DNA of 11,236 nucleotides from an uncultured cyanobacterium (GTDB taxonomy: Bacteria > Cyanobacteriota > Cyanobacteriia > Leptolyngbyales > Leptolyngbyaceae), in assembly GCA_963766075.1 (NCBI GenBank), contig CAVYAN010000055.1, positions 1-11,236 on the forward strand. The letters run 5' to 3'. Of this stretch, positions 1 to 11,236 are shown in pieces. How positions within the stretch are numbered: the first letter of the stretch is position 1; each line of letters begins with the position of its first letter. The notes beneath the pieces are model-generated. The model was not told the origin of the DNA and searched no databases. It worked only from the letters and a program-made list of their open reading frames with translations. The position numbers and the translations under genes were made by a program.

Positions 1-54
1 TTATGCTGTTCGCGTTATGGATTGTGGCAGTAGTTTGAAAGCTCTTGATAGAAA

Positions 55-705
55 TTAAAACACAGGATCAGACCAAGCACATGTTAAGTAGAGTAGTAGA
101 AGATCGGAAATCTCTTGCTCGAACCGGCTATTACTCACAAAACTTGGATGTTCGGTCGCGGCTGAGTGGCATAACGACTCAACCGTTCGACCTAAGATGA
201 AGACAGTCATTTCAAGATTTTGAGGATAAATACGTTGGTGAAGAGAATCGCGCCACCGTATAAGATACGCCCGTAGCAGTTCTGTAATGCGCGCATCCGC
301 GTTCTTCATTTGCTGCAACCGCTCTGAACGCGGAATCTCCTCGTTCAATACTTGGTGAAGACGAGGATCGATAGCATGAGCAGCAATGACTGCTCTTACA
401 AGTTCAGGGATGGCGGTCTCTAATGGTGCATCGAATAAATGTCGGAGTTTTGATTCCACTAATTCAGCAATTTCATTAGAATGTTGCTCCATCAAGGCAG
501 CTATCAAGGATTGCTTGTTCGGAAAGTACTGGTATAACGAGCCAATACTGATTCCTGCTCGTTCTGCAATGCGATTGGTGTTAGCTTTATCGTAGCCCTC
601 CTCCGTCAAAATGTGAGTCGTTGCCTCTAGAATCGCTTCAACGGTCATGTGAGAACGGTCTTGCTGCGGGAGTTTACGGGGGGCTGTGGAACGTTTGCGC
701 GGCAT
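55..705 (-). CDS. TetR/AcrR family transcriptional regulator
   Basis: N-terminal HTH signature: PQQDRS..TVEAILEA..ILTEEGYDKANTNRIAERAGISIGSLYQYFPNKQSL; 216 aa; divergent from the 789 ORF. Confidence 0.95.
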   Translation of the reverse strand: MPRKRSTAPRKLPQQDRSHMTVEAILEATTHILTEEGYDKANTNRIAERAGISIGSLYQYFPNKQSLIAALMEQHSNEIAELVESKLRHLFDAPLETAIPELVRAVIAAHAIDPRLHQVLNEEIPRSERLQQMKNADARITELLRAYLIRWRDSLHQRIYPQNLEMTVFILGRTVESLCHSAATEHPSFVSNSRFEQEISDLLLLYLTCAWSDPVF

Positions 706-718
706 AGAAATCTCTCCA

Positions 719-781
719 TCAAATGCGAGTTGCCAGACATGAGTAATAACTCATATCATACGAATAATCACTCGCATTTGA
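719..781. promoter_or_regulatory. Nested palindromic TetR-type operator overlapping a divergent promoter
   Basis: Perfect 12-bp inverted repeat TCAAATGCGAGT (719-730) / ACTCGCATTTGA (770-781) enclosing ATGAGT-N4-ACTCAT (739-754). Candidate + strand sigma70 promoter TTGCCA (730-735)-N18-TATCAT (754-759). Confidence 0.75.
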
Positions 782-788
782 GCAAGGC

Positions 789-1181
789 ATGATGAATTTA
801 CCTCAATACCGTGTTTTTGTTTGCACGAAGCAACGCTCTGAAAACCCCCCAGAGAGCTGTTGCTGTAACGCAGGTGCATTGGAACTCTACCAAGCCTTTC
901 AAGCTGAAATTCAGAAGCGGCAACTCAGCAATCTCATTGAAGTTTGTCGATCTGGGTGTTTGGATAGTTGTGAGGCTGGAGCAGTTGCATTAGTCTACCA
1001 ACCGCGCCAGCATGAGTTTGCTTGGCTCCCTACAAAGTTACGGCTGAAATTACAACGGTTCTTTACTTCTCAACGGTGTCTGTATGGTCATCTGACTTGT
1101 GATGATGTTCCTGCAATCGTTGACAGCCACTTTGTTCAGGGACAGGCACTAAAACGCTGTCAAATTTCCACCCATTCGTGA
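789..1181 (+). CDS. Thioredoxin-like [2Fe-2S] ferredoxin family protein with an insertion
   Basis: RVFVC12...SCCC24-26...SGC57LDSC61..G...VY.P...YGHLT.DDVPAIVDSHF matches the Trx-like 2Fe-2S ferredoxin pattern, with about 22 extra residues between VYQP and YGHL. Confidence 0.85.
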   Translation: MMNLPQYRVFVCTKQRSENPPESCCCNAGALELYQAFQAEIQKRQLSNLIEVCRSGCLDSCEAGAVALVYQPRQHEFAWLPTKLRLKLQRFFTSQRCLYGHLTCDDVPAIVDSHFVQGQALKRCQISTHS

Positions 1182-1194
1182 AATAGGAGGCAAT

Positions 1195-1591
1195 ATGCCA
1201 ATAACTGATAAAAAGAAGCTAAACCATGTCTACTTCATGCTGGTCAATACCTGCGGCGGTTTGTGGCTGTTGGCTTGTGGCTGCTGCCCTCGTTGGTTTG
1301 AGAGGTCTTATGAATAACTACTTACAAGATCAGGCTCGCTTGAATGCGCTCATCGCTAGCGGCAGTGCGGCAGAAGTCGATCAGTTTATGAAGGCTCTGC
1401 ATGCCCAGTATCACAGAAGCCCCGTGCAGCACATCAAAGTGCATGTGGACTGGATGCGGGTGTATCTCCTCCGCAAGTCGTATCATAAGGTGTTGGGGCA
1501 TGCCTTTGCTGGCTTCATCTTCGCCGTACCTGCCTCGCTGCTAGAAAAATATGCTGGGCTAGTAGTCCCTGCGTTTAAGAACAAGCATTGA
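1195..1591 (+). CDS. Hypothetical membrane-associated His-rich protein (probable true start 1195, apparent +1 frameshift near 1262-1282; ORF track 1226..1591)
   Basis: Strong RBS AGGAGG (1185-1190) precedes ATG 1195, whose frame stops at 1317. Removing 1 or 7 nt in the TGTGGCT-GTTGGCT-TGTGGCT tract joins it to the 1226-1591 frame (~130 aa). Hydrophobic N-terminal segment; HAQYH, HIKVH and HKVLGH motifs. Confidence 0.6.
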
Positions 1592-1596
1592 TAGAT

Positions 1597-1663
1597 ATGT
1601 CCCAAGGCGTTGCACCCGATGCCTTTGCTACGGCGCGGGGTCGGATGAACTTAGGTGTCATGC
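1597..1663 (+). mobile_element. Degenerate attC site
   Basis: Starts 5 nt after the upstream stop codon. L''-like GTT[G]CACCCGA (1609-1619) pairs 9/10 with TCGGATGAAC (1641-1650), followed by a 6-nt spacer and R'-like GTCATGC (1657-1663). R'' has decayed (ATGTCCC). Confidence 0.5.
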
Positions 1664-1793
1664 CAAACCCGATAGGCTCGACAAAATTGTCATTTTTCAG
1701 TCTCAAAAAAGCACTCAAAGATGACTGGCTTCGCTGATGAGTTCCGAGAGATGATTGGCGATCGCAGAGGTAAATAATTGATAAGCGATCGCT

Positions 1794-1881
1794 GCATAAC
1801 AAATCATTGGAGCGGACAATATTGTGATAGTTTGGTGTTGAGTTGAGGGAGGTGAATTGCCGCTCAATTTGGTCGTTATGC
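1794..1881 (+). mobile_element. attC recombination site (88 bp)
   Basis: R'' GCATAAC (1794-1800), 5-nt spacer, left arm ATTG[G]AGCGG[A]CAAT (1806-1820) complementary to ATTGCCGCTCAAT (1856-1868) with two extrahelical bases, 6-nt spacer, R' GTTATGC (1875-1881) fully complementary to R''. Confidence 0.9.
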
Positions 1882-1912
1882 GGCGGTAATTCCGGTTTGA
1901 GGTCTTAACAAA

Positions 1913-2203
1913 ATGAATGATCAAGATAAGGTGCATGCTTCTGAGCAAATTATGGGTGAAGTAATTAATGTTATGGTTGGTGCCACATGGGTTATCTCAG
2001 GCTCTATCTTGGTGGCGGGAGCGTTAATTGGCGTTGCTGCATTTAATGTGTCTGCTGCGATGCAATCACCAATTCCCTGGTGGGTAATGGCTCCAAGCGT
2101 TATTGTTCCTCTTGCTTGGGGTTCCCGGAATATTTGGTTTGGAGCACAGGAATTTGTGGATATCTACAGTCGCCGATTAGTCAATACCAGACACAGATTC
2201 TGA
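1913..2203 (+). CDS. Hypothetical small membrane protein (about 2 TM segments), cassette ORF
   Basis: 96 aa with hydrophobic stretches VINVMVGATWVISGSILVAGALIGVAAF and IPWWVMAPSVIVPLAW. Starts about 30 nt after the attC R' site, with GAGGT upstream. Confidence 0.65.
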   Translation: MNDQDKVHASEQIMGEVINVMVGATWVISGSILVAGALIGVAAFNVSAAMQSPIPWWVMAPSVIVPLAWGSRNIWFGAQEFVDIYSRRLVNTRHRF

Positions 2204-2253
2204 TCCGTCAGGTAAATGCCTGCTGCCAATGCTGCCACTGGCGTTGTAGGCTA

Positions 2254-2259
2254 TATAAT
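2254..2259 (+). promoter_or_regulatory. Putative -10 element for a leaderless rpn transcript
   Basis: Perfect TATAAT 6 nt before ATG 2266, with no Shine-Dalgarno in between. Confidence 0.5.
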
Positions 2260-2265
2260 TCCTTG

Positions 2266-3028
2266 ATGTATGATGATACCTGCCGTTTTCTCGCCGAAAA
2301 CTTCTCCGCCGACTTTGCTAGTTGGTTACTGGGAGAACCTGTTGCCATGACAGAATTAAAGCCATCGGAACTGCTCCCTGGGATTTATCCGTGCCGATGC
2401 CATGATTCTGCTTCAATCCGATGACTCAATTCTCCATATTGAGTTTCAAACGTTACCCAAAAAGAATATCCCGTTTCGAATGCTGGATTATCGCGTGCGG
2501 GGACATCGGTGCTATGAAGACAAAGCCATGCGGCAGGTGGTGATCTATCTAAAGCCCACTACTTCTGAACTTGCCTATCAAACGAGTTTTTCTTTAGAGA
2601 CTACCCGTCACGAATTTCAGGTAGTTCGGCTGTGGGAACAACCCTCCTCAGCGTTTCTTGAATATCCTGGGCTTCTACCATTCGCCGCATTGGGAGAGTG
2701 TGCGGACCCGGCAGAGATGTTGCGCCAAGCGACTCAAGTGGTCGATCAGATTGAAGACCAGACAACTCAATCGAATTTAATGGCTGCCTCAGCGATTCTG
2801 GCTGGGTTAAGATTAGAAGAGGACGTAATTTACCGTTTAGTACGGAGGGACATCATGCAAGAGTCTGTAATTTACCGTTCAATTCAGGTTGAAAAGACTC
2901 GGGAAATCGCGCTCAATCTTTTACGGGGAGGCGTGGATATCAGTCTTATTGCGTCTTCAACAGGTTTATCGGTTGAGGAAATCCGTCAACTTCAGCAGCA
3001 AGTAGGAGATAAATCTCCACAAAGCTAA
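2266..3028 (+). CDS. Rpn/YhgA-like PD-(D/E)xK nuclease (cyanobacterial Rpn family), net +1 frameshift at ~2371-2389
   Basis: MYDDTCRFLAENFSADFASWLLGEP..TELKPSEL in one frame continues as IRADAMILLQSDDSILHIEFQT..PFRMLDYRVR..QVVIYL..VRLWEQ..GLLPFAAL in the next. The C-terminus EIALNLL..G.DISLIASSTGLSVEEI is typical of the family. About 253 aa when joined. Confidence 0.85.
2855..3028 (+). CDS. Putative internally initiated small C-terminal Rpn protein (RpnS-like antitoxin, 57 aa)
   Basis: GGAGG at 2844-2848, 6 nt before the in-frame ATG 2855 (MQESVIYRSIQVEK...). Confidence 0.55.
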   Translation: MQESVIYRSIQVEKTREIALNLLRGGVDISLIASSTGLSVEEIRQLQQQVGDKSPQS

Positions 3029-3050
3029 ATTAATCTGTGCGGCGATCACA

Positions 3051-3135
3051 GCATAACAACCCGGCTGAAGCGGAATGGCAGAAACTGGGGCAAAATTCGA
3101 GAATCGTCTGCATCCGCTTAGCCGGACCGTTAGAT
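3051..3135 (+). mobile_element. attC recombination site (85 bp), last in the array
   Basis: R'' GCATAAC (3051-3057), left arm CCGGCT[G]AAGCGGA[A]TG[G]CAGA (3061-3082) complementary to TCTGCATCCGCTTAGCCGG (3107-3125), R' GTTAGAT (3129-3135) fits GTTRRRY. Lies 22 nt after the rpn stop codon. Confidence 0.88.
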
Positions 3136-3145
3136 TTAATTGGGT

Positions 3146-4504
3146 TTAAGGGGTGGAGATTGCCGATTGACTGGCAGTCATTAAATCGTCTAGTTCGGCG
3201 TAGTCGGGGAGGGTGCTATCGATGAGTTTACCGTCGCGCAGGATGATGCGATCGCGCTGTCCCCGAGACAACAATTCGCTGTAATTGCGGGCTTTGAACA
3301 GCACCAGATTGGCCGGGAGGCCCACGCCAATTCGGCCCATTGTGGGTAGACCCATCAAATCGGCGGGAGTGGTGGTGATCGCGCGGCTCCAGTCGCCAAA
3401 GGGGCGATCGAGGTGGGCAATCTTGGCGGAGAGGCTAAATACTTCTAGAGCATCGTGATCGCCATAGCCATAGAAGGGATCACGGCAGTTGTCGCTGGCG
3501 ATCGCCACGGGGACACCCGCCTGCTTTAACTCATGCACTAGGGTGACGCCGCGCCAGTGAGGCGTGTGGTTGGGCTGGCGATCTTGGAGGTACAGGTTGC
3601 ACATCGGCAGACTGACGATGCCAATGCCCGCTTGCTTGACCAGGGCAATGGTTTGGGCGGCGACGGCGGGTGGTTGCACGGCGAGACTGCAACAGTGACC
3701 ACAGACAACGCGCCCCTGGTATTTGTGGCGTAGGGTGGTTTTGGCGATGTGGTGCAGGGCTTGGGAGGCCGGATCGTTATTTTCGTCCGCATGGAAATCC
3801 AACGACAACTGGCGATCCTTGGCGATCGCAAATACCCGCTCCAACTGGGTGTCGATCTCCGCGTTCATGATGGCTAACCCACCAATAATGCCCCCAGGAA
3901 CGGTGGCCATGAGATCGGCAAGCTGTTCGCCTTCTGGGGTCAGGAAATACTCCAACGGCACTAAACAGGCAGCTTGCAGGGTCAGGCGATCGGCCCAGGC
4001 CGCTTGCAGACTTTGGAAGACTTCTAGACTAATGGTCCCCTGATGGCCGGAGGCGTCAATGTGGGTCCGAATGGCCTGGGTGCCATGGGCGTAGCTGCAC
4101 TTCAGGCCAAATTCCATGCGGCGATAGACATCCTCTGCCTGCCAATATTTGGCCGCGTCCTGTTTGGCGGCGGAAAGGGCACTGCCAAAGGTGCCGTCGG
4201 GGTTGGGGGTACGCTCCCAAATGTGCCCCTTATCCAAATGGGTGTGCAAATCGACAAAACAGGGCCATACCAGGCCACCCCGCAAATCCAAAGAGGGAGC
4301 ACCGTAGTCCGTCAGGGTGCCAGCAGTGGCAATGCTGGCGATCGCCCCCTCGACAATCTCAATATCGACCGATAAAAATTCGTCGGTTTGGGCCATGGCC
4401 CACTGGCGATTGCGGCCCTGCTTGCTGCGCACCATTAGGGGAGCGGGGATGCGGGCGTGGGTTAACCAGTAGTGGTCCGTGTCGAAGAGGGTGTCGAAGG
4501 GCAT
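3146..4504 (-). CDS. codA: Cytosine deaminase-like metal-dependent amidohydrolase
   Basis: Amidohydrolase motifs VDLHTHLDK, IRTHID, DFHADE, GHCCSL and ASDNCRDPF; 452 aa. Exact substrate uncertain. Confidence 0.85.
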   Translation of the reverse strand: MPFDTLFDTDHYWLTHARIPAPLMVRSKQGRNRQWAMAQTDEFLSVDIEIVEGAIASIATAGTLTDYGAPSLDLRGGLVWPCFVDLHTHLDKGHIWERTPNPDGTFGSALSAAKQDAAKYWQAEDVYRRMEFGLKCSYAHGTQAIRTHIDASGHQGTISLEVFQSLQAAWADRLTLQAACLVPLEYFLTPEGEQLADLMATVPGGIIGGLAIMNAEIDTQLERVFAIAKDRQLSLDFHADENNDPASQALHHIAKTTLRHKYQGRVVCGHCCSLAVQPPAVAAQTIALVKQAGIGIVSLPMCNLYLQDRQPNHTPHWRGVTLVHELKQAGVPVAIASDNCRDPFYGYGDHDALEVFSLSAKIAHLDRPFGDWSRAITTTPADLMGLPTMGRIGVGLPANLVLFKARNYSELLSRGQRDRIILRDGKLIDSTLPDYAELDDLMTASQSAISTP

Positions 4505-4506
4505 GG

Positions 4507-4540
4507 GGCGATTGGCGATTTTGGATTGGCGATTTTGGAT
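4507..4540. repeat. Heptamer STRR-type tandem repeat (GGCGATT/TTGGATT)
   Basis: GGCGATT GGCGATT TTGGATT GGCGATT TTGGAT directly upstream of the codA start codon. Confidence 0.8.
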
Positions 4541-4553
4541 CGAGTCTTTCTGG

Positions 4554-4605
4554 GCGTTTCACTGGAGCGTTTCACTGGGGCATTTCACTGGAGCGTTTCA
4601 CTGGG
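4554..4605. repeat. 4 x 13-bp tandem repeat GCRTTTCACTGGR
   Basis: Units at 4554, 4567, 4580 and 4593. The last unit contains the TGA stop of the DMT gene on the minus strand. Confidence 0.9.
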
Positions 4606-4939
4606 GCTTCTCGCTGAAAATCAGGTAGGCTGCCCCGGCCAAGAGCATCGCCGCTAGAAAATAGTTGCGGGTAATGGGAACTTTCATATACCCCACGCTA
4701 AAGCCCGCAAATACCACCATGGCGATGACCTCTTGCAGCACTTTGAGCTGGGGCAAGCTGAAATAGTGGGAGCCAATGCGGTTGGCGGGCACTTGAAAGC
4801 AGTATTCAAAAAAGGCGATCGCCCAACTGACGGCGATCGCCACCCACAGAGGTGCTCCCCGCAAATCCTTCAAATGCCCGTACCAGGCAAAGGTCATGAA
4901 AATGTTAGAGATCAGCAGAAATAGAATCGGTTGAAACAT
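4598..4939 (-). CDS. DMT family small membrane protein (DUF486/DMT_6 type)
   Basis: LLISNIFMTFAWYGHLK...SWAIAFFEYCFQVPANRIG..FSLPQLKVLQEVI matches the family signature; about 4 TM, 113 aa. Confidence 0.9.
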   Translation of the reverse strand: MFQPILFLLISNIFMTFAWYGHLKDLRGAPLWVAIAVSWAIAFFEYCFQVPANRIGSHYFSLPQLKVLQEVIAMVVFAGFSVGYMKVPITRNYFLAAMLLAGAAYLIFSEKPQ

Positions 4940-4988
4940 TCAGCCCTGTAGGTGAGCGAGCGGTTGATCAAGGCCAAAACCCAATTGG

Positions 4989-6113
4989 CTATCGGGGTAA
5001 AACCTGCTGCAAGGTAGTGAGGAAGCGATCGACGACTTCTTTGCGGCTGTTGTAGCCCATTAAGCCGACCCGCCACACTTGACCGGCCAGTTCTCCCAAA
5101 CCACCCCCAATTTCCAAGTTGTATTCCTGGAGCAGCTTTTGGGCAATGGCTTTGCCATCCACGCCGGGAGGAATGCGGACTGTGGTTAGGGTGGGCAGGC
5201 GAAACTCTGGCGCAACGTGCAGAGTCAGGCCCATGTCCTCTAAGCCTGCCCATAGGTAAGCCGCTGTGTCTTGATGGCGCTGCCAGCGGGCTTCTATCCC
5301 TTCCTCCGCCACCAACCGTAGGGCCTCCCGCAGACCGTAGTAGAGATTAATCGGGGCCGTGTGGTGATAGGTGCGCTCCGGTCCCCAGTATTTGCCCAAA
5401 AGGTTCATGTCCAAGTACCAATTGGCCACGGGCTGCGATCGCTGCTGCAACTTTTCCCACGCCCGAGCACTCAGGGTAAAAGGCGACGCACCGGGCGCAC
5501 AGCCCAGGCCCTTTTGGCTACAGCTATAGGCCAGATCGACACCCCACTCGTCCAGGAAAATTGGCACACCGCCCAAACTGGTTACGGTGTCAATCAGCAA
5601 CAAGCAGTCGAATTCACGACACAGATCGCCAACTCCCTCTAGCGGCTGTCGTGCCCCGGTCGAGGTTTCGGCATGGACCAGAGCCAAAATCTTGGGCCGA
5701 TGGGTAGTCAGTGCGGTGCGAAGTTCCTCCAGGCTAAACACCTGTCCCCAAGACTGAGTAATTTTGCGAACATCCGCGCCGTAGCGACCCGCCATATCCA
5801 CTAAGCGGTGGCCAAAATATCCCGCCACACCAATCAACACCACGTCACCAGGAGCGATCGCATTGGCGATCGCCGCTTCCATCGCCGCGCTGCCCGTGCC
5901 ACTGACCGCCAGCGTCAGCGCATTCTGCGTTTGCCAGGTGTAGCGCAGCAACGCTTGAATTTCGTCCATCAGGTGCAGAAAGGTTGGATCGAGGTGCCCC
6001 ACGGGGGACAACCCCATGGCATGCAGCACCGCCGGATCTGCATTGGACGGTCCGGGGCCAAGCAGCAAGCGCGTTGGCGGGTTAAGCGGGGCTAGAGAAG
6101 GTGGGGATTGCAT
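4989..6113 (-). CDS. Alanine-glyoxylate / serine-pyruvate aminotransferase (class V PLP enzyme)
   Basis: LLLGPGPS, SGTGSAAME, HAETSTG, DTVTSLG, SCSQKGL (PLP lysine), YHHTAP, WRVGLMG; 374 aa. Confidence 0.95.
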   Translation of the reverse strand: MQSPPSLAPLNPPTRLLLGPGPSNADPAVLHAMGLSPVGHLDPTFLHLMDEIQALLRYTWQTQNALTLAVSGTGSAAMEAAIANAIAPGDVVLIGVAGYFGHRLVDMAGRYGADVRKITQSWGQVFSLEELRTALTTHRPKILALVHAETSTGARQPLEGVGDLCREFDCLLLIDTVTSLGGVPIFLDEWGVDLAYSCSQKGLGCAPGASPFTLSARAWEKLQQRSQPVANWYLDMNLLGKYWGPERTYHHTAPINLYYGLREALRLVAEEGIEARWQRHQDTAAYLWAGLEDMGLTLHVAPEFRLPTLTTVRIPPGVDGKAIAQKLLQEYNLEIGGGLGELAGQVWRVGLMGYNSRKEVVDRFLTTLQQVLPR

Positions 6114-6150
6114 GGTTTTACCAGGAGAGAAGGATATGAAAGGACTTGAA

Positions 6151-6216
6151 AATTAAAAATACAAAATGGGGTCAAAGTGATCTACTTTTTTAATTTTTAA
6201 TTTTGCATTTTTAATT
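6151..6216. repeat. AT-rich heptamer-built inverted repeat between the 2OG oxygenase and the aminotransferase
   Basis: AATTAAAAATACAAAAT (6151-6167) vs ATTTTGCATTTTTAATT (6200-6216): 16/17 complementary, plus extra TTTTAAT units. The right arm overlaps the last codons of the 2OG gene. Confidence 0.6.
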
Positions 6217-6817
6217 GTTTCTTGGGTGATTTTATAGTTCTAGATTCGATGATAAAGTTTGGAATATCTCGTAATTCTATCTCATCTAAGGCGTACTGCT
6301 CGCAGACAAGGCTGAGGCGGGTGCCGGGGCTTTGGACAACGTTGATGGAATGGGTGAGGTCGCCTTGAAAGTAGATTAGGGTATTGGTTTTAGGGGTGAT
6401 TTGGCCCACTTGGCGTTTGTCGTGCCGGAGGACGAGTTCACCGCCTTGGAGGGGGACAGGGACTTGCACGTAGAGAACGCTGACGGTGGCGGGGGGATTG
6501 ATCGTTTTGCAGTAGGAACGCAGGGAGCGATCGATGTGGGGATCGACGCGGGAGCCGGTTTGCAGCAGCAGGGGATTGAGGTAAAAGGCGTTGCAGGTGG
6601 ATTGCAGGGCGCGATCGAGATAGGGTTTGAAGAAGGGAAAACGCCGCTCGACTTCCTCTAGGCCGGGGCGCTTGAAGGCGATGGAAAAGCCTTTAGTGGC
6701 AACGAAATCGCGATTCAAATTGTTAACCGCAAAGTAGGGACAGGCCAAAATTTCGCCCCGCAGGCGGTACAAATAGTCGGGGTCAAAGGCGTTGGGATGT
6801 TGGCTGTGGTACGGCAT
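6197..6817 (-). CDS. 2OG-Fe(II) oxygenase family protein (likely start 6817, ~206 aa)
   Basis: HID...GGEL...LTHSI...RLSLV provide the HxD..H..R-x-S motifs. The 64 upstream codons of the 7009 ORF look non-coding. Confidence 0.85.
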   Translation of the reverse strand: MPYHSQHPNAFDPDYLYRLRGEILACPYFAVNNLNRDFVATKGFSIAFKRPGLEEVERRFPFFKPYLDRALQSTCNAFYLNPLLLQTGSRVDPHIDRSLRSYCKTINPPATVSVLYVQVPVPLQGGELVLRHDKRQVGQITPKTNTLIYFQGDLTHSINVVQSPGTRLSLVCEQYALDEIELRDIPNFIIESRTIKSPKKQLKMQN

Positions 6818-7053
6818 GAGGAGCGGGAAATGCAGGAGGGGACGCCGATTGCCGGGTACGCAGCAAAAATTGCCCATATAAAATGGTAACCCAAGATGGT
6901 AAACCCAAGACCTGCTCGGAACCTGGAGTGGGTTACTGGCATTTTTCTTGGCCGGCTCGGCGGTCTGGGTGATTTCTCTCCGAATGCGCTTGGGAATTGT
7001 GATTATCATGAGGGGAAAGCAACGTACGGCGGTTTACTGCTGGATGAATTCCC

Positions 7054-9428
7054 ATGACTGATTTCCCTTCCGGTTGGCAAATTCCCCCCGCTCCCATCGC
7101 CGAGATTTTGGCTGTACCGCCCACGCCATCGGTCTATCTGTCGCCGACGGGGCGGTGGCTGCTGGAACTGGAGCAGCCGGGACTTTGCCCGATCGCCGAT
7201 CTGACGGAGCCGGAAATTGGTGTGGCGGGGTTTCGCCTGAATCCTCAGACGAATGGACCGGCACGCCCTACGCCCTATCGCCACATGGCGGTGCAGGATA
7301 TGGCCACGGGGGTGAAGCAAGCGGTGGAACTGCCGGAGGCGGCCCGCATCAGTTTTATTCGCTGGTCGCCGGATGGAGAAAAAGTGGCGTTCGTGCTGAC
7401 CCAGGCGACGGGGTTGGAGTTGTGGGTGATGCCCCTGGCGACGGGGAAGCCGTGGCGGGTGACGGAGCCGATTTTGAATGGGGCCTATGGCATCCCCTAT
7501 CGCTGGCAGTCGGCGGAAACGTTTGTGTGCAAGGTGGTTCCGGGCGATCGCGAGGCTCCTCCGGTTGCGCCCTTGGTGCCCAGTGGACCGATGATTCAGG
7601 AAAATCTGGGCCGCAAAACCCCCAGTCGCACCTACACGAATTTGCTGGCCAGTCCCCAGGATGAAGCGCTGTTTGAATACTACGTGACGGCGGGCTTGGA
7701 ACAGGTGACGTTGGCGGGGCAGCGATCGCCCCTGGTGCCTCCTAGCCTAATCAGTGAGGCGATTCCCTCGCCGGACGGACAGTACATTTTACTCAGTCTG
7801 GTGCAGCGGCCCTTTTCCTATCAGGTGCCGGAGTCGCGCTTTCCGCGCCGAATTCAGGTGCTGGATGCCCTGAGGAACTGTTGTGCATCAGGTGGCGGAT
7901 TTGCCCCTGGATGATCAGCGATCGATTAAGTTTGATGCGGTGCGTTCGGGGCGTCGGAGTGTGGGCTGGCGCAGCGATCGCCCTGCCACGCTGTATTGGC
8001 TGGAAGCCTTGGATGGAGGGGATCCCCAGCAGTCAGTTCCCCATCGCGATCGGATTATGCAGCAGGCGGCACCGTTTACGCAGGAGCCTGAGGAATTGTG
8101 GCGATCGCAGTACCGCTTTCACCGACTGCGCTGGGGTCGGGAGGATGTGGCCTTGGTCTGGGAGCAGGAGTACGATTCTCGCCAAATTCGCCTGTGGCGG
8201 ATTCATCCCGATGCCCCTGCGACGCTGCCGACCTTGCTGATGGAGCGCAGCATTGAAGATCACTACAGTGCGCCCGGTACGCCGTTGATGGTGGCGGGTG
8301 CCTACCATTGGCAGGTGCTGCGGTTTACCCCTGATGGCCAGGGCCTCTACTTTAGCGGTCGCGGAGCTTCCCCGGCTGGTGTGTATCCCTTTTTAGATCA
8401 GATGGATCTGGCGACTGGGGCGCGGCACCGATTGTGGCAGTGCCAAGCGCCCTACTTTGAAGCGATTGTCGAGATGCTGGACTCGCAGCAGTTACTGACC
8501 CGCCGCCAGTCCCAGACGGAACCCCCCAACTATTGGCGGCGATTGCTGCCCGCGCCGACATCTGGCCCCGGATCTGGCTCCGGATCTAGCCCCGGTACCG
8601 CTGACCACCTATCCCGATCCCGCGCCTCAGTTTGCGGCGGTTACCAAGGAGTTGGTGCAGTATCCCCGCGCCGATGGGGTGATGCTGTCGGCAAACTTGT
8701 ATTTGCCTCCGGGCTATGAGGCGGAGCGGGATGGACCGCTGCCGATGCTGTTCTGGGTCTATCCGGCGGAATTTAAGAATCGCGAATTGGCGGGACAGAT
8801 GACAACGGCGGAGCATACCTTTAGTCGTCCGACGCGCACTTCTGTGTTGTTTTTATTAACTCAGGGCTATGCGGTCTTGGATGATCCGACGTTGCCCATC
8901 ATTGGCGAAGGTGATGCCGAACCGAATGACACCTATGTCGAGCAGTTGATTGCTGGAGCTGAGGCAGCGGTAGAGTATGTGGTGGGGCGTGGCGTGGGCG
9001 ATCGCGATCGCCTCGGGATTGGCGGCCATTCCTACGGAGCCTTTACCACGGCCAATTTGTTGGCCCATACCCGCCTGTTCAAGCTGGGGATTGCTCGCAG
9101 TGGGGCCTATAATCGCACCCTGACTCCTTTTGGCTTTCAGGGCGAACAGCGCAATTTTTGGGAAGCTCCGGACACCTATAACCAAATGGCTCCCTTCACC
9201 CACGCGGCTAAAATTCAAGCGCCGTTGCTGTTGATCCACGGGGCCAACGATAGCAATGCTGGCACCTATCCGCTGCAAACGGAGCGGTTGTATGAGGCGC
9301 TGAAGGGGTTGGGGGCCACGGTGCGCTGGGTCGAGTTGCCGCTGGAGGATCATGGCTATCGATCGCAGGAGGCGGTGGGGCATGTGCTGTGGGAAATGGT
9401 GCGATGGTGTGATTTGTATTTGAAGTAA
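7054..9428 (+). CDS. S9 family serine peptidase (glutamyl endopeptidase-like), split by two +1 frameshifts (~7873 and ~8558)
   Basis: The beta-propeller N-terminal part (WSPDG, SPDGQY) runs through three consecutive frames into the catalytic domain GGHSYG (Ser), ARSGAYNRTLTPFGFQ, HGANDSN (Asp) and EDHGY (His). About 790 aa when joined. Confidence 0.9.
8555..8595 (+). repeat. 12-bp tandem repeat (CCGGATCTRGCY) x3 encoding PDLA repeats
   Basis: CCGACATCTGGCC CCGGATCTGGCT CCGGATCTAGCC CCGG. The first unit has one extra base that coincides with the frameshift. Confidence 0.8.
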
Positions 9429-9549
9429 TCGGTTTCGCTCTGCGATCGCCTCAGTTTTTGCGATCGCCGCAATTCTGGGGAAAATGAAAAGCCCTCTAAT
9501 TTAGCGGCGGAGTTGTCCAGAAATGGTACAAGATCTAAGAAACCCCGCG

Positions 9550-9575
9550 CCAATCCCAAATCGCCAATCCCCAAT
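9550..9575. repeat. Heptamer STRR-type repeat (AATCSCM)
   Basis: AATCCCA AATCGCC AATCCCC AAT just upstream of ATG 9582. Confidence 0.65.
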
Positions 9576-9581
9576 GCCTCT

Positions 9582-11171
9582 ATGGAACCCGTAGAACTGT
9601 TCTTTTCCTACTCCCATAAAGATGAGAAATTGCGCGATCGCCTAGAGCCGCATCTGTCGATGTTGAAGCGAGACAAGGTGATCAAGGCTTGGCACGATCG
9701 CAAAATTAGCGCGGGGACAGAATGGGCAAAGGCGATCGACGATAATCTCAACTCGGCGGGGATTATTTTGTTGTTGGTTAGTGCCGACTTTTTGGCTTCG
9801 GACTATTGCTACGACCTGGAAATGCAGCGGGCCATGGAGCGCCACGAGGCGGGAGAGGCGCGGGTGATTCCAATTATTTTGAAGCCAGTGGATTGGACCA
9901 GTGCGCCCTTTAGCAAACTTCAGGCGTTTCCTAAGAACGCCAAGCCGGTCACCAAATGGACCCCGCAGGATGAGGCGTTTGCCAATATTGCCCAGGGGAT
10001 TCGGCAGGCCGCAACGGAGATGGCAGCGATTTTGGCCAGTCGCCGATCGGACACGGATCAACCCCACCCCGTAGATCTGCCGCCCCCGCTACCGCCCCCG
10101 ATTGTGACAGTGGCTGGGTCTGGGGTAGCGTCTCAGGTCGGTTTAATGGAACTCGAAGAAGTGGGTGGGCAGGTGCCCCTGGGATCGGTGTTTTATGTGA
10201 ACCGTCCGCCGATGGAGGAGCGATGTTTTGCGGCGATCGCCAAACCGGGTGCCCTGATCCGCATCAAAGCTCCGCGCCAAATGGGGAAATCTTCCCTGAT
10301 GCTGCGGATGATGCAGTCGGTTTGGGATCGGGGAGAACAGGCCGCTGCGTTGAACTTTCAGTTGGCTGGACAGGATTGTTTGGGTGATTTGGATCGGTTT
10401 TTGCAATGGTTTTGTCTGAGCTTGACCGATCAACTGGATCTGGAGGAACGGTTGGCAGACCATTGGAAGGGCGCGCTGGGCTGCAAAAATAAATGCACCA
10501 ATTATTTTCAGCGCTATTTGCTGCCGGAAATTCAGACGCCGATCGCCCTTTGCCTAGACGAAGTGGATGAGATTTTTCAGCACCCGGCGATCGCGACGGA
10601 TTTCTTTGGCATGTTGCGAGCTTGGCATGAGGAGGCGAAGCTGAAACCGATTTGGCGAAATTTGCGCTTGGTGATTGTCCATTCCAAGGAGGTGTACATT
10701 CCGCTGAATATTAACCAGTCGCCGTTTAATGTGGGGGTGCCGATCGATCTGCCGCCGCTTACGCCTGATCAGGTGCTGGATTTGGCTCGACGGCATGGGT
10801 TGGCATGGGCGGAGCCAGAGGTAGCGGAGTTGATGAGCATGGTGGGGGGCCATCCGTTTTTGGTGCGGGGGGCGTTGGTGCCGATCGCGCGGGGCGAGAT
10901 GACCTTGGCCGAGGTGTTGGCGGTGGCCCCGACGGAGGGCGGCTTGTTTGGCGAGCATTTGCGGCGGCATTTGCTGAATCTGGAGGGCGATGCCAAGCTG
11001 CTGGCGGCGATGAAGTTGGTGCTGGCCATGGATCAACCCGTATTAATTGATACGACGGAGGCGTTTAAGTTGGTGAGTATGGGGGTGGTGCGCTATGAGG
11101 GCAGTCGGGTGGTGCCGCTGTGTGATGTCTATCGGCAGTACTTCGGCGATCGCTTGGGAGTTAGACCGTAA
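9582..11171 (+). CDS. TIR domain + AAA_35-type (STAND-like) NTPase fusion protein
   Basis: N-terminal TIR (LFFSYSHKD...WHDRKI.AG.EW...IILLLVSADFLASDYC...E...RVIPIIL), Pro-rich linker, then GGQVPL.S.FYV.R, Walker A APRQMGKSS, Walker B LCLDEVD, QSPFNVG and GGHPFLV. Start moved from 9513 to 9582 because the intervening stretch is STRR. Confidence 0.9.
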   Translation: MEPVELFFSYSHKDEKLRDRLEPHLSMLKRDKVIKAWHDRKISAGTEWAKAIDDNLNSAGIILLLVSADFLASDYCYDLEMQRAMERHEAGEARVIPIILKPVDWTSAPFSKLQAFPKNAKPVTKWTPQDEAFANIAQGIRQAATEMAAILASRRSDTDQPHPVDLPPPLPPPIVTVAGSGVASQVGLMELEEVGGQVPLGSVFYVNRPPMEERCFAAIAKPGALIRIKAPRQMGKSSLMLRMMQSVWDRGEQAAALNFQLAGQDCLGDLDRFLQWFCLSLTDQLDLEERLADHWKGALGCKNKCTNYFQRYLLPEIQTPIALCLDEVDEIFQHPAIATDFFGMLRAWHEEAKLKPIWRNLRLVIVHSKEVYIPLNINQSPFNVGVPIDLPPLTPDQVLDLARRHGLAWAEPEVAELMSMVGGHPFLVRGALVPIARGEMTLAEVLAVAPTEGGLFGEHLRRHLLNLEGDAKLLAAMKLVLAMDQPVLIDTTEAFKLVSMGVVRYEGSRVVPLCDVYRQYFGDRLGVRP

Positions 11172-11200
11172 AATAAACCTACCCGCTGTTGCTTACCCCT

Positions 11201-11236
11201 ATGCGTCATCCTCACCTCGCCTATATTCTCGCCACT
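11201..11236 (+). CDS. Possible start of the next gene (partial, MRHPHLAYILAT...)
   Basis: ATG 29 nt after the TIR-NTPase stop, open to the window edge, with a signal-peptide-like beginning. Only 12 codons visible. Confidence 0.3.
   Translation, partial: MRHPHLAYILAT

Follow-up and report, generated by a model that had tools for sequence, protein, structure and literature searches.

A cassette array beside codA in a cyanobacterium: probably an integrase-less but attI-bearing node of a distributed integron

Introduction

The integron of Vibrio cholerae is one very long sedentary array. Here we describe a short array of integron cassettes next to the host gene codA in an uncultured cyanobacterium of the family Leptolyngbyaceae. 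The array lies in a stretch of 11,236 nucleotides, the entire contig CAVYAN010000055.1 of assembly GCA_963766075.1 (hereafter, the window); G000 denotes the genome of the window, C-numbers its contigs (the window is C55), L-numbers loci, and X-numbers sequencing runs. Judged from sequence, the array is probably without an integrase gene but provided with an attI site, and would be a single node in a distributed integron that is served in trans, i.e., a layout in which one enzyme would act on many docking sites, each with a short array. The integron integrase (IntI) of this genome belongs to the same family as that of V. cholerae (VchIntIA, 2A3V), and the attC sites share with that system a hairpin with extrahelical bases, an unpaired spacer, and a variable loop (PMC2727003). 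Unlike in V. cholerae, the arrays are many, with 1-3 cassettes each, and the first unpaired base of the attC sites is G on the top strand.

The CALINs (clusters of attC sites that lack integron-integrases) described in PMC4889954 are similar, being small arrays with two attC sites or more, with no intact intI nearby and an IntI elsewhere in the genome. Cyanobacteria are named there among integron hosts, and mobilisation in trans has been proposed for CALINs (PMC4889954, PMC12444791). The origin of CALINs is open, as attI is searchable in few classes only, not for most integrons, and 95% of CALINs are reported without a recognisable intI pseudogene (PMC4889954). A 38-codon intI remnant of the kind described below would probably miss the 50%-coverage rule of that study. 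The present array, unlike those CALINs, would keep an attI head, and could therefore gain as well as lose cassettes.

In Xanthomonas (PMC12444791) and in the survey of PMC2426708, intI is likewise deleted or broken, cassettes persist, and several intI copies occur per genome. The Xanthomonas platform is described at one locus (ilvD), with strains that share an intI lesion having 'usually identical' contents (PMC12444791), whereas in G000 the same deletion recurs at three or more loci, each with cassettes of its own. Single attC sites lacking integron-integrases (SALINs) and attG insertions (bioRxiv 10.1101/2022.09.11.507474) resemble the situation in G000 in that single attC sites are scattered over the chromosome and IntI acts away from its own attI. 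In that work short GWT motifs of the host DNA serve as attG sites, whereas the heads described here are 100-250-bp, repeat-built attI copies like those found beside intI.

Cyanobacterial integrons and CALINs, intI pseudogenes, mobilisation in trans, and attG insertion are already in print (PMC4889954, PMC8618304, PMC2426708, PMC3108266, PMC12444791, PMC9668308, bioRxiv 10.1101/2022.09.11.507474), and the array alone, stripped of its genome context, is an ordinary case of an element already known. In the literature searched, we found neither multiplied orphan attI heads of cyanobacteria, nor a one-integrase/many-attI layout, nor the attI motif used below, subscription papers and supplements being outside its reach, so a prior report is possible.

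Results and Discussion

attC sites of the window

An earlier reading of the window, made without database searches (the sequence-only reading), had proposed an integron cassette array with two textbook attC sites and a decayed third. The two intact sites, attC1 and attC2 (Table 1), are oriented alike; each has R''/R' cores, L boxes, and extrahelical bases, and each forms a hairpin on the bottom strand. The bottom strands of attC1 and attC2 fold as attC hairpins with z of -3.05 and -3.42, respectively, none of 200 shuffles being as good; the corresponding top strands gave -1.93 and -3.23. Sites were searched for by hidden Markov model (HMM) and covariance model (CM), an initial heuristic scan having proved noisy and overlooked attC2. 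Our own covariance model, R2, built from 23 attC sites in other cyanobacterial genomes (compensatory changes in 11 of the 18 pairs of its training alignment), matched both sites on the + strand, attC1 with 55.4 bits (E 3e-12) and attC2 with 65.5 bits (E 7e-15). The R2 test is partly independent only, since the training sites had first been found by an HMM seeded on sites of this genome. By coordinates, bottom-strand folding, and R2 scores, both sites, and with them an integron cassette array, are confirmed.

The third site begins 3 nt past the stop codon of an open reading frame (ORF) and retains 5/6-nt spacer geometry. It neither folded as a hairpin (z +0.87 and -0.12) nor matched R2 at E<=5. 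The DNA from position 1657 on is 71% identical over 83 nt to a cassette in L031 that begins with an intact GTTATGC right behind an attC. Its position after the ORF, the spacer geometry, and this homology support the earlier assignment as a decayed attC, which is probably not recombinogenic.

One intact integrase gene, many short arrays, and several attI-like heads

A single intact intI was found in the genome, on C41. Its product matches TIGR02249 with 464.6 bits (cut-off 265) and aligns over residues 10-320 with VchIntIA 2A3V (E 3e-86), as befits an IntI-family integrase with the integron-specific region. Two more intI 3' remnants were seen, at C31:37075-37206 and C8:67806-67928; they have another breakpoint and no type-1 attI, and each lies upstream of attC sites.

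Genome-wide, 28 attC matches were obtained in 23 clusters of 1-3 sites, 19 of them single, and the reversed-genome control peaked at 13.4 bits; the CM also lists 28 sites, mostly the same ones. The sequence-only reading would have been undermined by repeats dispersed singly through the genome. Most clusters are indeed single, but the cassette reading stands because they form many small arrays, several with an attI of their own. The window itself has two intact attC sites within 4 kb and no intI on C55, which makes it a CALIN by definition. Sedentary chromosomal (super)integrons, as defined in PMC4889954, have more than 19 attC sites per array or occur in all strains; the largest cluster here has three sites, and codA in 19 relatives has no attC beside it. 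SALINs and attG clusters have no attI upstream, whereas all three candidate left neighbours of the window (see below) end in or near an attI-like head.

One attC, at C17:107083-107163, has its R' landing in the 3' end of an Rpn gene (to 107284) that is 86% identical to window 2910-3047; the segment C17:107083-107284 is likely an attG-type insertion.

Six heads match the attI motif with at most one mismatch, and a further attI type is present at C17:102 kb and at the C22 end. The attI of C17 is homologous to the intI-adjacent site, the homology stopping at the crossover G/TT (the slash marks the crossover). Contigs C17, C31, and C65 share the junction of a ~850-bp intI deletion and are 90-92% identical over attI and the Pc promoter region (attI/Pc), and three different first cassettes follow. 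The deletion junction forms a near-perfect 18-bp inverted repeat, which fits what a template switch would leave. The deleted ~850 bp includes what we take to be a LexA-box-like motif, present at C41.

C41 and C17 are 83% identical over attI/Pc up to G/TT, and 771 of 776 positions (99.4%) agree from G/TT onward. Similarly, C37 and C65, with two different attI types, have one ORF-less cassette in common as their first. A short attC recurs at C65:48666-48807, C37:2700-2840, and C11:1587-1670, and at C65 and C37 it closes this first cassette of ~140 bp. A cassette that is 99.4% identical in attI platforms only 83% identical suggests loading in trans, and the jump of identity at G/TT fits copy-and-paste insertion by IntI, described in PMC8024014.

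The left neighbour of the window

The window starts with TTATGC, which had been read as an R' remnant. The tetR-ferredoxin cassette of L031, a Pseudanabaena metagenome-assembled genome (MAG), is 81% identical over window 1-1250, begins G/TTATGCTGTT, and stands behind an attI-like tract; its start bears out the remnant, and the contig break of the window falls at the crossover. Three contig ends that halt at the crossover could precede it: those of C41 (intact intI), C17 (deleted intI), and C22 (other attI type). C17 ends in GTT inside an attC (52.5 bits, CM) and shares its first cassette with C41.

A gene for a FAD-binding oxidase lies 2.2 kb from the C17 end; in relatives it often directly follows codA, adjoining it in 7 of 19 fetched codA loci (67-77% amino acid identity). 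When five candidate flanks were compared with 20 codA loci, only that of C17 matched a codA-adjacent gene, the C22 and C13 flanks giving two weak, unrelated matches. By coordinates, this FAD-oxidase gene, present in a single copy, lies less than 2 kb after codA, in the same orientation, in 14 of the 49 relatives having both. Given this gene order, the best-supported left neighbour of the window would be the C17 end. Contig-end overlaps were at chance level (longest, 9 nt), and a 7-nt overlap with the C59 end was rejected, the base before TT not being G.

If the join is direct, an island of ~5.3 kb with three intact attC sites would lie between codA and the FAD-oxidase gene, with attI ~780 bp left of the window and one cassette between them. 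The C17 intI is cut to its last ~38 codons, so no intact intI would stand beside the array, and the C17 attI would head it, provided that the join holds. The sequence-only reading had placed attI to the left, and attI-like heads were found within 0.8 kb of the ends of all three candidates. It had also offered two alternatives, of which the CALIN stands and the oldest, distal end of an array is not supported, attI being ~780 bp away at the best-supported join: the array is probably complete, with three cassettes and an attI that lacks an integrase gene, rather than the old tail of a long one. A conserved integron at codA was rejected, no attC being detected in the 1.5-kb flanks of codA in 19 relatives.

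Five contig ends (C41+, C17+, C22-, C55+, C13-) lie within 3 nt of the G/TT crossover; this could stem from a population in which cassette orders were mixed when it was sampled.

attI heads in other cyanobacterial genomes

An IntI above cut-off was present in 30 of 61 genomes, that of the window included. The attI motif, derived from heads of this analysis, matched 21 of the 61 (20 of the 60 relatives without G000) and, phylum-wide, 29 of 401 genomes, almost all in the window's own class; the reversed-pattern control gave no hits in either search. Proximity to intI was assessed for the 50 non-G000 sites of the 61-genome set; 40 sites were fetched, mostly those not yet placed beside intI, and the other ten were placed from search coordinates. 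Nine sites lie just upstream of a divergent intI (full or split) and one next to a fragment. For 35, intI is absent within 1.5 kb, and the other five were too near contig ends or unchecked. A same-strand attC follows downstream in 22 of the 35 orphan sites, and an opposite-strand attC was found in 2 of 41 loci.

In G043, a single-contig genome, there are five attI copies with a 172-bp core that is 99-100% identical (one pair, 91% with an insertion); one of them is accompanied by intI, and all five continue into different cassette starts. The left edge of the core (L160-L164) reads as an opposite-strand G/TT cassette start, and 1.5 kb upstream L160 and L161 carry an attC on the opposite strand; a cassette may have entered in reverse between intI and attI. 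Another two copies have 1.2 kb of upstream sequence in common, including an ORF that we take to be IS1-like, which suggests spread of heads driven by an insertion sequence.

A module repeated in front of many arrays

Many arrays are preceded by a module composed of an ORF of ~75 aa without a Pfam family and a hairpin like the antitoxin RNA SymR (sub-threshold at 36 bits, the gathering score being 61), bounded by HIP1 (highly iterated palindrome) sites; the module is possibly a type I toxin-antitoxin-like unit. It was found at C41:94521-95030 and at about 17 other loci (Table 1), and in 9 of 18 copies an attC lies on the same strand no more than 7 kb away, versus 1.1% at random. Elsewhere, G025 has 36 matches and G033 has 10, and in G002 a single match lies next to intI. 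The left ends of modules and heads are ragged. Movement of the platform as a giant cassette or transposon was dismissed, given these ends and no shared G/TT or terminal repeat seen. On C90, the DNA to the right of the module (38131 onward) turns AT-rich and foreign-looking by eye, a possible chimeric contig or insertion.

Proposed mechanism and alternatives

We propose a small integron island in the chromosome, placed between codA and the FAD-oxidase gene, whose right part is in the window. Its C17 part would comprise the FAD-oxidase gene, an ORF of the 75-aa family with its SymR-like hairpin leader, the intI remnant, attI, and cassette 1 (DUF6883 + DUF4926) with its attC; the window would add a compound cassette (1-1875, attC1), a further cassette (1876-3129, attC2), and codA. 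After one intI deletion, copies of the attI head would have reached several loci without the action of IntI, as the ragged left ends indicate, probably by homologous or illegitimate recombination via the repeated leader and HIP1 sites. IntI from the intact gene, or from a passing one, would act in trans, cassettes being excised as folded bottom strands (attC x attC) and put in at any attI head, sometimes by copy-and-paste.

Several observations weigh against an array headed by the C17 attI and served in trans. In 35 of the 49 relatives, codA and the oxidase gene are not adjacent, lying apart or on separate contigs. The C17-window join is spanned by neither a read nor a contig, no run had more than 14% of the words of the stretch, and the exact pattern of the window start gave no metagenome match; runs X1, X4, X8, and X2 yielded only pieces from relatives, none of which links position 1 with a known contig. 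Further cassettes may be missing from the gap, and the completeness of the MAG is 85%. The window start is also fitted by the C41 end (1 nt short; intact intI) and the C22 end (exact abutment; other attI type). Assembly could then have split a complete integron of the ordinary kind, the window continuing C41 or the orphan attI at the C22 start: the C41 end is the same attC and stops exactly before the G of G/TT, the C22 end stops exactly at that G, and the assembly has left no deciding k-mer overlaps. We hold this to be quite unlikely, for the C41 and C22 flanks, unlike that of C17, do not match the codA-adjacent gene of relatives, and C13, which starts GTTATGT, abuts the C41 end exactly and gives C41 another partner.

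The heads themselves are also open to objection. attI was identified by position, crossover, and repeats only. No significant Pc signal was found (one 9/12 match inside the head; 5 found versus 2.4 +/- 1.5 expected). Some of the sites recovered by the motif had contributed to it (2 of the 9 linked to intI and 2 of the 35 orphans), and 13 of the 35 orphan sites have no detectable downstream attC. G027, G053, and G060 have orphan heads and no full intI, so that heads there may be inert, and the 99.4% identical cassette pair could stem from gene conversion. The orphan heads might in general be passive relics, loaded while an integrase was present or copied or converted by homologous recombination, and inert in trans, which can hold alongside the C17 join. 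This agrees with the orphan sites lacking attC, with the decay widespread in the window (a fused cassette, a dead third attC, a frameshifted Rpn gene), and with intI pseudogenes being described as common (PMC2426708). We still consider it rather unlikely, as one shared deletion stands before three different first cassettes, identity leaps from 83% to 99.4% exactly at G/TT, and the near-identical heads of G043 carry five different cassette starts; the five or more contig ends near the crossover fit mixed cassette orders as well, though repeats could also cause them. An origin as the old distal end of a long array, or as a CALIN from attG insertions beside codA without attI, is very unlikely. 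attG insertion is established (bioRxiv 10.1101/2022.09.11.507474) and has apparently occurred in this genome too, 19 of 23 attC clusters are single, and the rightmost G/TT junction beside codA could be an attG scar, but every candidate left neighbour has an attI-like head near its end and no cluster exceeds three sites.

We incline slightly to the broader view that many cyanobacteria run a distributed integron, with orphan attI heads amplified to ~4:1 over integrase-linked ones and loaded in trans by one IntI. If so, a sizeable fraction of the CALINs and single attC sites of cyanobacteria would be live capture sites rather than remnants or attG accidents. The attI motif makes the idea countable and testable and, by marking integrase-linked and orphan heads alike, makes it possible to ask which CALINs can still capture genes. 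With orphan heads served in trans, integrons would spread capture sites chromosome-wide, even into a conserved gene pair, beyond one growing array, and would offer native landing sites and a recombinase for cyanobacterial engineering.

Cassettes of the window

Cassettes move as units between G/TT and attC, as seen from the same limits in L031 and from the same cassette behind two attI heads. In L031, tetR, ferredoxin, and darcynin genes form one cassette closed by attC, and that of Cyanosarcina (L033) is also attC-terminated; in the close relatives L029 and L030, the genes are present and no attC was detected. Relatives of the window's TetR-family regulator were found at nine loci (76-89% identical; eight labelled cyanobacterial), and a consensus scan located promoter-like hexamers at 730-759, before the ferredoxin-like ORF. 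A second tetR cassette lies between two attC sites at C8:49478-52313 and is 72% identical to window 467-736; it also carries an ORF that is presumably glycosyltransferase-like.

Homology to L031, L033, L029, and L030 ends at 1250, where the rest of the darcynin gene and its attC appear to have been lost by a deletion that fused two cassettes. The leader at 1251-1309 resembles, by eye, the cassette start at 1875. The fusion junction is spanned also by contigs in runs X1, X2, and X4, and the X2 contig covers window 74-1727 with 93 differences, so the same fusion exists elsewhere. The DUF3703-like ORF has no Pfam match, and the attC belonging to its cassette is the decayed site. The 5' part of the ORF-less cassette that follows matches a cassette start in L031, its 3' part matches a cassette end before R'' in L179, and pieces of it are present in run X8. 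Positions 1-1875 would now excise as a single unit. Fused and ORF-less cassettes are already known (PMC8876359). Nested insertion was considered, as the window start pairs better with R'' of attC2 than of attC1, and was set aside because GTTATGCNG starts are common here and the end of the L031 cassette itself has that sequence.

For the hydrophobic ORF of the last cassette, there was no Pfam match, no NCBIfam match near cut-off, and no relative in the metagenome scan. The Rpn gene scores 49.4 bits against TIGR01784 (cut-off 52.1), and its frameshift is deduced from alignment with the C60 paralog. PMC10400941 describes Rpn genes as toxins against phages, furnished with internal antitoxins.

Table 1. 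Features of the window, and further loci of the repeated module
Feature	Position	Strand	Basis
R' remnant TTATGC just past the G/TT crossover, start of compound cassette	1..6	+	L031 start; C17 end ...CGTT
TetR-family regulator, 216 aa, first gene of tetR / ferredoxin / darcynin cassette	55..705	-	PF00440 + PF17918
2Fe-2S ferredoxin-like ORF, 130 aa, divergent from tetR	789..1181	+	NF041613 E 1e-17, below cut-off
Darcynin gene 5' remnant	1195..1250	+	14/22 residues identical to L031 protein (PF17074)
DUF3703-like ORF, 93 aa, of fused second cassette	1310..1591	+	ESM Atlas 0.94 to DUF3703 clusters
Decayed attC (supported), both core triplets altered	1594..1663	+	position, downstream homology; neither fold nor CM hit
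ORF-less cassette ending in attC1, both HIP1 sites (1758, 1785) inside	1657..1875	+	L031, L179 homology
attC1	1794..1881	+	crossover G1875/T1876; fold + CM
Hydrophobic ORF, 96 aa	1913..2203	+	ORF only
Rpn-family nuclease / putative transposase gene, frameshift near 2373, C-terminal frame open	2266..3028	+	TIGR01784; C60 paralog
attC2, final site of array	3051..3135	+	crossover G3129/T3130; fold + CM
codA-like cytosine deaminase, host gene	3146..4504	-	NF005759 664 bits, cut-off passed; synteny
Other loci of the repeated module	C2, C8, C10, C17 x2, C21, C22 x2, C31 x2, C60, C65, C69, C72, C76, C90, C117		

Composition and neighbouring genes

Cassette DNA has a GC content of 46.9%, versus 57.2% in the flank and 53.5% in the genome, and GC is as low in 2.3% of 4714 genome windows; the sequence-only reading had rightly called it AT-richer. 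That reading had also pointed to a scarcity of HIP1 sites. The counts hold (2 in 1-3135, 21 in 3136-11236), but, set against the genome-wide rate, the shortfall lacks significance (expected 4.3, P=0.20). The contrast is real only with the flank, which is itself HIP1-rich, and HIP1 depletion was dropped as a sign of foreign origin. An Rfam scan of the window gave no hits. As had been noted, the last R' ends 10 nt from the codA stop.

Further to the right, a peptidase S9 gene seems cut into three overlapping ORFs (7054-7914, 7883-8719, and 8652-9428), apparently by frameshifts or assembly errors. A 552-aa TIR + AAA_35 protein, possibly of defence or signalling, is encoded at 9513-11171. A 13-bp tandem repeat was seen at 4552-4616, and short 7-bp repeats in inverted orientation, 5 kb apart, at 4507-4616 and 9548-9575.

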